The notes beneath the pieces are model-generated. The model had not been told where the DNA came from. It saw only the letters and a program-made list of their open reading frames with translations, and made no database searches. Position numbers and translations under genes: made by a program. Shown here piece by piece: positions 12 to 64,000 of a stretch of DNA of 64,000 nucleotides (position 1 is the first letter of the stretch; each line of letters opens with the position of its first letter). The stretch is from Escherichia phage vB_EcoM_G2133: sequence record MK327928.1. The stretch is one strand, 5' to 3'.

Positions 12-2244
12 TTAGGCCGCAAGGGCCTTCATAGTTTTAGCGATTTGGGAAACTTCATCATCGCTTAAAGAATTACGATAACCGATGAAGTCGGAAACAA
101 TACGGAATTTCTTGGTAAACTCAGCAACCATTTTATCACTATTTTTTGAAGCATTACGTGATAATTCATCAAAGAGATTAGTTACTGTCCAGATATCATG
201 ACCGATGGTATCTTTTCCACCATTGAAATACACACCGCGTAATGAACTAACCATATTACCAAGTCGTGTATATTCTTCAGAAACTTCATCTGTACTGAAG
301 TACTTCATCATAAAATCTAGTTCAGGATACTTGATAATTTTATCAATATATCGTTGAGCTGAACTTGAATAACCTACATACTTATCATAATCTACATCAT
401 CAAAAGCATCTACATATAAATCACGCAAAGCTTCAAAAATACATTGGCACTGACCGAGTTCTTTTACCTTTTTCTGTAAAAGCGGACGAATAACATAAAA
501 TTCATTAATGCCAATAAGATTAGCCATACGAATCAAAATATTCATAGATGGATGACAAAGTGATGTAGTACCATCCAGCCATACGAATCAAAATATTCAT
601 AGATGGATGACAAAGTGATGTAGTACCATCCATAGAGAAAATATCAGAACGATGCATATACGCTACATAACCAGTAATTTCATCTGCTTCTGACGTAAGT
701 GTAAATAGTTCCTCTTTTTCCCAGCGCCCGTCTTTAATTTCAAACTTAAATGCTGTAGCAGCTTTAGGACGAGGAGCTTTACTTTTAACTACCTTTGGAA
801 TATAGCTTTTAACTAAAGCTTCAATTTCTGACAAATAATGAATGTTAACTTCATCACTTTCAAACATCGCTATAATATCAGGAAGCAAATCAATCTGCGA
901 TTCTACTTCTGGATTAATAAACAGAAGGCGTTCGTTGTGATGAATATTCAAAGCGTTATTAAATTCACTATCATCTAACGCACGTGCTAATCCACGGACA
1001 ATATTAACACGATTTTTAATATTATCAATAACAATATTAATTTTTGTTGTATTAATACCAAACAGACGATAGCTTGATGCAACGGCTGAAGTTTCATGAC
1101 TTTGCTTAATGCGTTTCAGTCGAGGGTCAAGATTTACTTCATACACAACTCCTGCATTGCATAACTTACTATCAGGTTCAAACATACTCTGCATCTTTTT
1201 ATATGACAGATTTTTAGTCGTGAATTTGACTGAATTACTAATCATATAATCTCGAGCAGAATACCCCATCTTCATCAATTCACGATATGTGTGACGAGGA
1301 GATGTAGATTCTTTAAATCGTTTTACATCTTCATTAAATGCTTTCTCACTGAGTTCTTTAACACGCTCAATAATATTTTTACGAGTACGATCATCCAGCG
1401 AAAGAGCCTCGCGAGATGGAGCAATATCAAGTGAACCCATTGGAAACTTAATGTAATTCACTTCATTGCGAATGCTTAGCCAGTTACGGTCTCTAATAAC
1501 ACCATCGATAGGATAAACAATACCGCCATAGATAGCATATAATCCACCACGATCAGGCCAGTATCTTTCTGGATTTACACCGTAATAGTCATCAAAATCC
1601 GGAAAATAATCAATTTCGCGGTCAAGACCGTTAATGATAGCCAAATCTTTGAACGGTCGCATGATATAAGAAACTTCATAAGCAAAGTTTCTAAAGTCTT
1701 TTTCTTCAACTGGAACTACGATTTCAATACCAGTTTTATCATCTGGACCCATTTCTTTTACGAATGTAGGTTTAATCTGTGGGCCATCGCCATCCATGTA
1801 AGCTACATAACCACGAATTTCACCTTTATGGTATGAAGTAATACTAAACGTATCAGTATAACTAAACGGAGATTTAGAACCTAAACCAAATCCGCCAATG
1901 AAATCGTTAGATTCAGCCTTAGATGAACTGAAGTATGAATTATACAGACCAGGAGAATTATCATCACCCTGAATATCAAAATCACTCATACCCGGACCAA
2001 AATCTCGGCAAACAAATCGTGGATCTAAACGTCCAGGAACTTGAATGATAAATTTTTCAGGATTTCCATTGAGAGCATGGGCATCAATCATGTTGGTAAT
2101 CAATTCACGGACTACTGCGCGAATTTTGTTTGTATACAAATCAGATGACAGAATTTTAAATACTTTAGGAGATGCTGTGATGCTAAATGCTTTTGATTTA
2201 GAACCATTACCAAGAATTGTTTCTTTTTCAGTGGTGATAATCAT
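12..2244 (-). pseudogene. rIIA: rIIA rapid-lysis gene, frame broken by a 55-bp tandem duplication (574-codon ORF 520..2244 plus stranded 3' part 12..545)
   Basis: N-terminus [20 protein letters not shown]; both ORFs encode MNILIRMA at the junction; removing one 55-bp copy gives a single 725-codon ORF. Confidence 0.85.
522..631. repeat. perfect 55-bp direct tandem duplication (2 copies) inside rIIA
   Basis: 522-576 and 577-631 are identical: agccatacgaatcaaaatattcatagatggatgacaaagtgatgtagtaccatcc. Confidence 0.95.
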
Positions 2245-60901: not shown

Positions 60902-61222
60902 TTATTCTTTAAATCTGATCAATTTATTCATAGACTTTGAAACTTCTGCACGAACCTCATGTAAGTTTTTAAGCTGTTCAAGACGCTGTTCATAGTAAGC
61001 AATTTCATCTTCTTCGAGACAGTCCTGTGAATCTTCTTTAAGATAGCGTGCATAGTCCTGGAAAGCTTTACGGACTACTTCCTGGAAGTCATCAAGACTT
61101 TGAATTTTCTTAGGAGCAACAGATACACGACGAGGGGCAGTATAATACTCATAACCAAACCCTGCGCTTAATTGAGCCATTAGTATTTTTCCTCTGGTTG
61201 GAACACTGCGCGACAAGCCCAC
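60902..61222 (-). CDS. hypothetical protein
   Basis: 106-aa ORF. Confidence 0.45.
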
Positions 61223-61482: not shown

Positions 61483-61660
61483 CTAAACGAATAGGTTCAT
61501 GAATGCCATATCCTTGAACAGAAATTTCTGTCGTAGGATAAATTCCATCAATATCACCCATGGTCCACGCTTCATTAAATTGCTGTTCGCCTGAATTACT
61601 AAACCACTCGGCGAAAGCATTTAGCACATCTTTAGAACCTTCAATAATTATCTTTGCCAT
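61439..61660 (-). CDS. hypothetical small protein
   Basis: 73-aa ORF. Confidence 0.4.
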   Translation of the reverse strand: MAKIIIEGSKDVLNAFAEWFSNSGEQQFNEAWTMGDIDGIYPTTEISVQGYGIHEPIRLVEYDLCTGEEVKYD

Positions 61661-62022
61661 TACAAACTCTCAGTAAAGGTACGAGCGATAACGTCGCGCT
61701 GCTGTTCCGGAGTCAGAGAGTTAAAGCGAACTGCATAACCGGATACACGGATGGTCAGCTGCGGATATTTTTCCGGATGCTTAACTGCATCTTCCAGAGT
61801 TTCACGACGCAGAACGTTAACGTTCAGGTGTTGACCACCTTCAATTTTAACTGTAGGCTGTTGCTCAATTTCAATTTCACGGGCATGCAAACCGTAGAAA
61901 ATTTCTGGGTCTACAAAAGAGTCCTCTTTAAAGGTTTTAGAGACAATAATTCGTGCTTGAATACCATCTTCAAAATAAATAGTACCTTTATGTGTGCCTT
62001 CAAGAATTTGATATGCTTTCAT
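61660..62022 (-). CDS. autonomous glycyl-radical cofactor (GrcA/YfiD-like)
   Basis: 120 aa; C-terminal 60 aa [59 protein letters not shown] with RVSGY glycine-radical motif. Confidence 0.7.
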
Positions 62023-62029
62023 ATAAACC

Positions 62030-62361
62030 TCAATTAGAAAATAAATTTATCCAAGATTGTTCTTTAATTAAAAACGGCTCAGAATCATATGCCATTAAAC
62101 TCTGTGTGATTAGTCCTTTAAAAGGTCCATCAATAAATTCCATGGTAAAATATGGAATTTTATTCATTAGCCGTGCATTAGGAGCAGTACATAAAACTCT
62201 GCATCCTTTGAATACGCCTTTTTGTAATTTGTATTGCTTGGGATAAAATTCGCTCAAAATATTATTATTCGCTAAAATTTCAAAATGATTCACCAATTTA
62301 TTTTTAATAGTTTTTGGCGAAAAATAAAGATATTCGAAAAGCTGAGTGTCTGTCATCATTG
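62030..62361 (-). CDS. hypothetical protein (start ATG 62361, ATGA overlap)
   Basis: 110 aa from [10 protein letters not shown]. Confidence 0.4.
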
Positions 62362-62943
62362 CATTCCGATTACGAAAAACTGTGGACGAGTAATACCACC
62401 AATACAACAGTTAATATTACAGCAGCAGTGTACAGTGTCAATATGGACACTATAAATCTTATCCATATCAGGAGATTTGACAGGCTCATCAATTATATAC
62501 AAAATTCGCGAAAGCGATAAACCTCTGAACTTGCTTCCTTTATTACCTATAAAACTGCGCACAGAATCAGTAAATAAACGAAAACGTATATCATCATTAG
62601 AATAACGCGAAAATTCCTTTTTAATGTTATTTGCAGAAATTTTAGCGTAAGCTGAAGTATTAGAAAGAACAATAACTGTTCCGCCATCATACAGCCAATT
62701 AGCAGCAAAGTTAGTCACAGCAATTGATTTACCGGATTGACGTCCACCATCTAGTCGAAGTGTGCAATACTGTTTAAGTAAATCTTCAAATGGCGGAATA
62801 TATTCGTTTTTACAAATTTCTTCTACTCTAGCATCAGAATGGTGTGTAAAAGCATTCATCAGGGATAGATAAGGTCCAGTTAAAAATGTTCTCATTTTAT
62901 TCTCTCTAAATTTGGGCCATTCCATGGCGCATGAATTGTCCAT
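62356..62943 (-). CDS. P-loop NTPase with Cys-rich C-terminus (start ATG 62943)
   Basis: 195 aa from MDNSCAMEWPKF; Walker A GGRQSGKS; Walker B ILYIIDEP; tail HCCCNINCC. Confidence 0.45.
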   Translation of the reverse strand: MDNSCAMEWPKFRENKMRTFLTGPYLSLMNAFTHHSDARVEEICKNEYIPPFEDLLKQYCTLRLDGGRQSGKSIAVTNFAANWLYDGGTVIVLSNTSAYAKISANNIKKEFSRYSNDDIRFRLFTDSVRSFIGNKGSKFRGLSLSRILYIIDEPVKSPDMDKIYSVHIDTVHCCCNINCCIGGITRPQFFVIGMQ

Positions 62944-63008
62944 TTCTGTATTTACCCCCTCCAAGTAATTATGATTATACTATCACAATTCTAGGAGAAA
63001 GTAAACTG

Positions 63009-63311
63009 TTATTTACCTTTAATTACTTTAGCTGCTTCGATAGCCGCTTGCTGAAGGTCATCCATAGACATACCGAATTTAGAAGCAAAGTTATCAATTT
63101 TCTTTTCGACAGCATTCAAAGGCTTGGCCTGTTTACCTTCATTAGCGCCAGGAAGAGCGAGAATACGCTCTTTGTCAATATAAAGGCTTACAAGTTTCTT
63201 ACGGTCTTTATCGGACAAATCATGAAATGAATGGGCCTTTTTATTTATAGCGGCTTCTAATTTACCTGCACTCACTCGCGCTTCAGTAATAAATTCTTGA
63301 TATGTTTTCAT
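63009..63311 (-). CDS. ipII: internal protein II (packaged in capsid)
   Basis: 100 aa; N-terminal capsid targeting sequence MKTYQEFITEA. Confidence 0.75.
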   Translation of the reverse strand: MKTYQEFITEARVSAGKLEAAINKKAHSFHDLSDKDRKKLVSLYIDKERILALPGANEGKQAKPLNAVEKKIDNFASKFGMSMDDLQQAAIEAAKVIKGK

Positions 63312-63352: not shown

Positions 63353-63931
63353 TTAGGAATTACGGGCTGCATTAGCAACGGCGTAAGCGTACTGAACATT
63401 AGCGTCTTTAAACGTACCTTTAGAGGTATCTAGTTCTGCCTTAAAGCCGCCTTTAGTCATAACATCGGCAAATTCTTTACGGAAAGCCATTGCATCAAGA
63501 CTTCTCCATAATGATTTGTGCTTGGCGAATTCAAGACCAGCGTAGTTGACAGCCTTAGCTAATTTGTTATCAATAACCCATTTACCAGCTTTAGGCACAA
63601 ACACCGGGCCTTTCTGTTTAGAGAACAGTTTTAAATTCCAGCGACGAAGGTCACCGTCGGCTTTAACAAAAGCTGCGTCTAAGTTACTAGCAACAACATC
63701 CTGAATATGGCCAAATTTAAGCCCATCAACTTCAATATTTAGATCGGTACGCCAGCGAAGTCCTTCCCAAGCGAAAGCTTTAAAGTCGGAAGCCTTTGTA
63801 GCTAAGTACCGTTCAATAGGAGCTGTTTTAGGGTCAAAGCCGTTTCCCGATCGGTAGGTCCACTCATCTTTATTAATGCCTTTGGCCTTTACTACAGAAG
63901 CTTCGGCAATAAATTCTTGATATGTTTTCAT
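63353..63931 (-). CDS. ipIII: internal protein III (packaged in capsid)
   Basis: 192 aa; N-terminal capsid targeting sequence MKTYQEFIAEA. Confidence 0.75.
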   Translation of the reverse strand: MKTYQEFIAEASVVKAKGINKDEWTYRSGNGFDPKTAPIERYLATKASDFKAFAWEGLRWRTDLNIEVDGLKFGHIQDVVASNLDAAFVKADGDLRRWNLKLFSKQKGPVFVPKAGKWVIDNKLAKAVNYAGLEFAKHKSLWRSLDAMAFRKEFADVMTKGGFKAELDTSKGTFKDANVQYAYAVANAARNS

Positions 63932-63959: not shown

Positions 63960-63989
63960 ATTATACCATATTAATACTTAAGCGTAAAC
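63960..63989 (-). promoter_or_regulatory. T4-type early promoter for ipIII
   Basis: GTTTAC (63989..63984), 18-bp spacer, tatggTATAAT. Confidence 0.6.
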
Positions 63990-64000
63990 CGTTTAAGCTT

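Follow-up and report, generated by a model that had tools for sequence, protein, structure and literature searches.

The gene that directly follows ipII in Escherichia phage vB_EcoM_G2133 (hereafter G2133) is, judged by its sequence, an ortholog of T4 vs.8, which encodes a conserved hypothetical protein, and the site between the two genes at which T4 carries denV (slot 1) is empty. Very probably, this locus holds a T4-type vs.8 beside a slot-1 denV site that was emptied by a deletion of approximately 0.5 kb, with a denV copy at a second position (slot 2) being usual in the relatives of the phage. The analysis covered a 64 kb stretch of the genome (sequence record MK327928.1; the window), to which the best phage records are approximately 96–98% identical.

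The genes concerned lie on the minus strand and are ordered along the direction of transcription as ipIII, ipII, a short spacer, vs.8, vs.7 and vs.6. The ipIII gene (63353..63931) encodes the 192-aa internal protein III, which is 92% identical to T4 IpIII and matches PHROG 5341 (E 7e-117), and ipII (63009..63311) encodes the 100-aa internal protein II, which is 93% identical to T4 IpII and matches PHROG 7857 (E 4.5e-55). The spacer that separates ipII from vs.8, the next gene, measures 65–113 bp. Downstream of vs.8 are a vs.7 ortholog (62030..62359), whose 109-aa product shares 99% identity with T4 Vs.7 (PHROG 2049, E 3e-54), and, two genes away, a vs.6 ortholog (61660..62022) encoding a 120-aa GrcA-like autonomous glycyl-radical cofactor (Pfam Gly_radical, E 2.5e-18). 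Upstream of ipIII, a strong promoter-like site is found at 63960..63988 on the minus strand (TTTACG, 17 nt, TATAAT, with an extended TG; 10/12 matches).

Probable loss of denV between ipII and vs.8

The T4 gene order is ipIII-ipII-denV-vs.8-vs.7, so the initial annotation was right that denV adjoins ipII in that phage. It was also right that denV is missing here, as neither an ORF nor any DNA in the window resembles DenV. When the whole 64 kb was searched with the T4 and JoYop DenV proteins (tblastn), nothing better than E 1.7 was obtained, the best matches having E-values of 1.7–3.1, and blastn with the two denV genes gave chance matches of 13–23 nt only. For comparison, the slot-2 DenV of phage JoYop (OR769032.1) matches PF03013 with an E-value of 3.7e-14.

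The junction was compared across the window, T4, JS09, HX01 (NC_018855.1), JoYop and BF15 (MW822007.1; alignment A2). A 521-bp stretch of the T4 locus (L001 2866..3386), which takes in denV, the 5′ extension annotated for vs.8 and a portion of the spacer between denV and ipII, corresponds to 18 bp in the window (62958..62975). Just past the ipII stop lies a T4-type early-promoter-like element (62977..63006, minus strand) composed of GTTTAC, 14 nt and GTGATAGTAT, which agrees with the early-promoter consensus GTTTAC(N14)gtggTAttaT at 6/6 and 8/10 positions. The depositors of OL960576.1 labelled the homologous site there a T4 early promoter, and the stretch is conserved in the alignment with T4. 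A generic sigma-70 scan raised no call in the spacer between ipII and vs.8; the candidate promoter is called from its match to the T4-specific consensus. It is followed by TTGGAG, which is the denV Shine-Dalgarno sequence in phages still carrying denV or a remnant of it. In the window, TTGGAG is joined to GGGGTAAATACAG, a sequence that lies 3′ of denV in T4. The deletion scar TTGGAGGGGGTAAATAC (62948..62964, minus strand; alignment A2) is this fusion of the orphaned denV Shine-Dalgarno GGAG to the T4 post-denV sequence.

Two relatives retain pieces of denV at slot 1. In JS09, the start codon and codons 1–36 are left (L008 2701..2808), and in HX01 the last 20 codons (L007 2688..2747), in each case between the same flanks as the scar. 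A direct repeat, (T)GGGTAAA, occurs at both deletion ends in these remnant-bearing phages, and the presence of TGGGTAAA at both breakpoints in JS09 makes a deletion between short direct repeats the simplest origin of the empty site. The 18-bp replaced stretch of the window fits such a repeat model with one mismatch relative to the left flank of JS09 or HX01. Slot-1 denV would thus have been lost by a clean deletion of about 0.5 kb ending in the 6–8 bp direct repeat GGGTAAA, which would suggest slippage during replication or an illegitimate recombination event. The event would have stranded the denV ribosome-binding site and put vs.8 directly under the former denV promoter. The candidate early promoter past the ipII stop is predicted to drive denV in T4 and vs.8 in G2133, in which vs.8 would be transcribed early.

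The direction of the change is read from the remnants in these other phages rather than from the lineage of G2133 itself. The eroded denV pieces of JS09 and HX01, lying between exactly the same flanks, argue that the empty site arose by loss and not the T4 state by gain. The opposite course, in which denV was never present at slot 1 in the G2133 lineage, the ipII-vs.8 junction is ancestral and T4 acquired denV by insertion, would fit the wide spread of the empty junction over Tequatrovirus and Mosigvirus, and the heterogeneity of slot-1 denV (T4 91% and ZCEC14 76% relative to slot-2 DenV) could mean separate acquisitions. It is nevertheless very unlikely, given that the GGAG kept in the window is the denV ribosome-binding site in JS09 and HX01 and that the breakpoints fall in a direct repeat, as a deletion would give.

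Under the preferred reading, loss of slot-1 denV by deletion, the empty allele, which is common, would be old and would have spread among T-even phages by recombination. A 201-nt query across the junction is covered to at least 80% in one place by 103 records, and a contiguous vs.8-ipII junction is present in at least 35 of the 60 phage records among the matches listed. That an empty slot 1 is usually tolerated may be explained by the second denV copy in slot 2.

A third denV site appeared to be present in HX01, whose RefSeq record names a product ‘pyrimidine dimer DNA glycosylase’. This candidate was rejected, as the gene (L007 565..864) is a mislabelled vs.3 homolog that is 60% identical to Vs.3 of the window, with no DenV similarity and no Pfam match. 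The Vs.3 ortholog of the window (60902..61180, minus strand) gives a weak Pfam match to the Tex-like N-terminal domain (E 0.0015), which at 18.6 bits falls short of the cut-off of 32 and is probably due to chance.

A second denV position and UV sensitivity

Slot 2 in Tevenvirinae has the order e, a 94-aa ip gene, denV (137 aa), an 85-aa ip gene, and then ipIII or ipII. Its denV is intact in JoYop and in phage 132 (MZ417521.1), both of which have the ipIII-ipII-vs.8 order of the window together with the empty junction. The window ends 69 nt past the start of ipIII, and slot 2 would be expected approximately 260–680 bp beyond that end, at about 64260–64680 in window coordinates. A query running from ipIII to slot 2 is covered to at least 80% by at least 73 records, which include most of the colinear phages found in the initial search (among them mogra, G2469, the AV series, PTE-Eco05, PTE-Eco15, PHB12, phi25-307, W143 and SP1). 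Every colinear relative among the matches listed has an annotated slot-2 denV.

The last six bases of the window, AAGCTT (63995..64000, minus strand; alignments A1 and A4), form the 3′ end (..AAA GCT TAA) of the 85–87-aa ip gene beside slot 2, and phage ZCEC14 (OP168898.1), which is without this gene, diverges exactly at AAGCTT. Since the window ends in the end of the 85-aa ip gene, G2133 has the slot-2 module, with its denV either intact or not.

Slot-2 denV has been hit by two further, independent microhomology deletions. In BF15, a search of the whole genome found denV solely as an out-of-frame C-terminal slot-2 remnant of 36–42 codons (L002 4164..4289), so that this phage is denV-null. The BF15 deletion lies between AATTATG repeats and is shared by Shinka (L022 2944..3069) and G8 (L009 7417..7542), in whose analysed loci the remnant is the only denV sequence; the resulting null allele is recognisable by the fusion GGAGGAAATTATGACCCGTCCGAAGCG. 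The second deletion is found in ZCEC14, which has an intact slot-1 denV and keeps codons 1–41 at slot 2 (L021 2660..2782). There a deletion between AAACGGT repeats has joined the remnant to the promoter region of ipIII, inside which it ends at AAACGGTTTACG. Reciprocal loss of denV from one or other of two slots seems to be the rule in T-even phages.

Several observations were made on these loci in passing. Copies of denV in T-even phages have repeatedly been destroyed via direct repeats of 6–8 bp, namely GGGTAAA at slot 1 and AATTATG and AAACGGT at slot 2. The slot-1 denV of ZCEC14 (L021 1222..1632) is only 76–77% identical to the DenV of T4 (L001 2945..3358) and JoYop, and the T4 slot-1 DenV is 91% identical to the slot-2 copies; slot-1 alleles being this heterogeneous, the two slots do not represent two clean paralog lineages. 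The ZCEC14 record contains errors, its denV (L021 1216..1632) being named a ‘TraG-like protein’ and its ipII (1690..1992) an ‘ssDNA binding protein’. In the G8 locus, ipIII directly adjoins vs.8, without ipII.

The initial annotation had regarded the absence of denV beside ipII as consistent with a T2-like, UV-sensitive lineage. This step is not supported, because most colinear relatives have an intact slot 2. Nor is the locus built like that of T2, as the window has both ipII and ipIII, and T2 has neither of them, another ip gene, and a vs.8 in three frames. T2 is the classical UV-sensitive T-even phage, and its whole genome (163.8 kb; AP018813.1) yielded no denV (best E 4.6), in agreement with that sensitivity. 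The T2 vs.8 (L003 6757..7400) matches T4 Vs.8 in three frames, with only a 57-aa fragment annotated, and is either a frameshifted pseudogene or a product of sequencing errors in the record, which also carries many nonsensical product names. A passage in PMC12373910 describes T2 and T6 as being without Ip2.

Whether G2133 carries no functional denV anywhere, and is thus a naturally UV-sensitive T-even phage like T2, depends on its slot 2. We regard this as a serious possibility with somewhat less than an even chance. The 64 kb window has no denV, T2 and BF15 show that a T-even genome can be without denV throughout, and Shinka and G8 share the slot-2 deletion of BF15. Moreover, when relatives still possessing the 85-aa ip gene are ranked by identity at the right edge of the window, the remnant types (Shinka 96.9%, G8 96.5% and BF15 96.3%) come slightly ahead of the intact types (95.3% and 94.6%). 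However, these differences in identity are small and the region is highly mosaic. Most phages with the vs.8-ipII-ipIII order have an intact slot-2 denV just past the point where the window ends, and the window covers 64 kb, with roughly 100 kb more of the genome lying outside it. The closest relative over ipII-ipIII is ZCEC14 (99.2% over 986 nt), and its slot 2 retains denV codons 1–41, from which it follows that its ancestor did not have the BF15-type deletion.

Because denV has an alternative position, UV sensitivity cannot be predicted from an empty slot 1. As a by-product of the comparison, the repeated removal of denV between repeats of 6–8 bp emerges as a route to natural denV-null phages.

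Vs.8, a predicted stand-alone P-loop ATPase

The initial annotation described a P-loop ORF directly after ipII, and the minus-strand ORF indeed ends in a TGA at 62356 and extends over 195 aa from an ATG at 62943. An alternative TTG start at 62964 would give 202 aa in the ORF reading of the window. The conserved protein is more likely to be of 179 aa (62356..62895, minus strand), starting with MRTFLTG at an ATG at 62895, than of 195 aa. This start is favoured because T4 reads the 16 codons ahead of it in a different frame, because a TAA closes them in BF15, and because the PHROG profile begins at MRTF. The 195-aa frame is open in G2133 and also in JoYop and phage 132. The overlap of the vs.8 stop with the start codon of the next ORF, reported at the outset, is seen directly in the sequence as ATGA (62356..62359, minus strand), within ATGCAATGATGA at 62364..62353, and is annotated likewise in T4, BF15 and JoYop. 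Through this ATGA, translation of vs.8 would be coupled to that of vs.7.

The description of the 179-aa form as a Vs.8 ortholog and predicted P-loop ATPase draws on PHROG 1488, identity with the T4 protein, a family alignment and a structural model. Residues 19–195 of the 195-aa form match positions 2–177 of the 177-position PHROG 1488 profile (E 2.8e-79). The gene also has the placement typical of the family, within the regB-ip early region and with vs.7 and vs.6 following directly. Searching 5.8 billion proteins recovered 27 clusters, none of which has a Pfam domain, and the named hits were all from T4-like phages apart from one record labelled as E. coli. In an alignment of 18 members (40–87% identity), the Walker A motif GGRQSGKS (residues 50–57; 62725..62748, minus strand) is part of an invariant D49-G-G-R-Q-S-G-K56 stretch. 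In the Walker B motif LYIIDEP (residues 132–138; 62482..62502, minus strand), five residues never vary (L132, I134, I135, E137 and P138), and at least 90% of the members keep D136. R113, R124-G125 and a C-terminal FFVIGMQ are also invariant.

The AlphaFold2 model of Vs.8 (pLDDT 81, pTM 0.82) is a single domain in which strands alternate with helices. In Foldseek searches against the PDB, its neighbours were solely generic domains of the RecA-like/ASCE type, none of which reached a TM-score of 0.5; they include SF1/SF2 helicase domains, DSH9, SLFN11, RecD, RecA, KaiC and the packaging ATPases of phi29 and phi28. Most neighbours in BFVD, a set of predicted viral structures, were small and uncharacterised proteins from other large myoviruses. 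A Walker A of the form GxxxxGK[ST], a Walker B of the form hhhhDE and an alpha/beta core are all present, as in ASCE P-loop NTPases. With Walker A and B invariant in the family and RecA-like neighbours of the model, the P-loop NTPase reading of the ORF stands, and Vs.8 is predicted to be a small, minimal, stand-alone single-domain ASCE P-loop ATPase. Its intact Walker motifs (A and B) and conserved arginines suggest NTP hydrolysis, for which it probably oligomerises or acts together with a partner.

Placement in a named ATPase family failed, with Pfam matches below threshold (AAA_14, Terminase_6N and AAA_30, nothing above it) and only generic fold neighbours in the PDB. NCBIfam gave no match, and a sequence search of the PDB nothing significant, the match to TcpA (E 0.046) covering the Walker B region only. 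Vs.8 resembles the ATPase cores of packaging enzymes and helicases, with weak profile matches to terminases (phrog_2, E 1.5e-5; Pfam Terminase_6N, E 0.12), but the terminase large subunit was rejected as its identity: the Terminase_6N score is 12.5 bits against a cut-off of 22, and the protein has 179 aa, without a nuclease or second domain.

The initial annotation also described the protein as ending in HCCCNINCC. The stretch is present, at residues 156–164 of the 179-aa form (62404..62430, minus strand), but the protein continues for 15 residues beyond it. A functional module for metal binding or redox chemistry, and one defining Vs.8, would fit a stretch in which five of nine residues are cysteines and one is a histidine, and in which close relatives keep a CC pair. 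Such a module is highly improbable, however, because distant members with the same Walker motifs (P0014–P0017) have no cysteine in that stretch, the segment varies in length, the model has pLDDT below 50 at residues 161–168 inside it, and Vs.8 has no Pfam match to a zinc ribbon or similar domain. The idea of a zinc module was dropped for lack of conservation in the family alignment. The alignment and the model point instead to a lineage-specific, variable surface loop with no conserved metal site.

A full-text literature search, noisy because ‘vs.’ is an abbreviation, returned no experiment or publication on the function of Vs.8. As an early stand-alone ATPase, it might have a host-takeover or anti-defence role, an idea prompted by the richness of the early operon in counter-defence genes (ipII, ipIII and vs.4, the last of which encodes a cyclic-nucleotide sponge). 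Separately, denV may behave in T-even phages as a two-slot gene whose reciprocal loss through microhomology deletions gives rise to naturally UV-sensitive phages, with T2 and BF15 as examples and G2133 as a possible further one. Taken together, these ideas are speculative and rather unlikely. Among the operon's products, Ip2 and Ip3 are described in PMC12373910 as inhibitors of GmrSD type IV restriction enzymes. As a well-conserved small predicted ATPase, Vs.8 could merit a knock-out or ATPase study.

Comparison with known systems

Nothing at the vs.8-ipII locus falls outside known kinds; it is an ordinary polymorphism. Many deposited, annotated genomes already show both the junction without denV and the alternative position of that gene, and polymorphism of the internal-protein locus in T-even phages is attributed to Repoila et al. 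(1994) where that work is cited in PMC12373910 and PMC2839356.

JoYop, 132, BF15 and Mosigvirus members such as WFbE185 have the same contiguous junction (95–97.5% identity over 201 nt) and share the gene order ipIII-ipII-vs.8-vs.7 with the window, whose scar differs from theirs by one extra G. In these complete genomes, slot 2 is intact in JoYop, 132 and WFbE185 and destroyed in BF15. T2, with 96.3% identity to 58.5 kb of the window, likewise has no denV adjoining vs.8, but a different internal-protein gene replaces ipII and ipIII.

With terminase large subunits and RecA-like ASCE ATPases, Vs.8 shares the P-loop alpha/beta core; a separate terminase, the gp17 homolog seen in BF15, is encoded elsewhere in the phage. 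The window contains none of the coding sequence of T4 endonuclease V (DenV; PF03013, Pyr_excise), and of T4 denV it retains only the putative former promoter and the ribosome-binding site. T4 Vs.8 (NP_049732.1) is 92% identical to the G2133 protein over 195 residues and shares its Walker A and B motifs; the two genes are alike in synteny, each being followed by vs.7 with an ATGA overlap and then by vs.6/GrcA. They differ in the upstream neighbour, which is denV in T4 and ipII in G2133, and in the Cys-rich stretch, where T4 has YCCNSKCC at the place of HCCCNINCC. The annotated N-terminus of the T4 protein (219 aa) is in another frame and begins in the DNA that has been deleted from the window.
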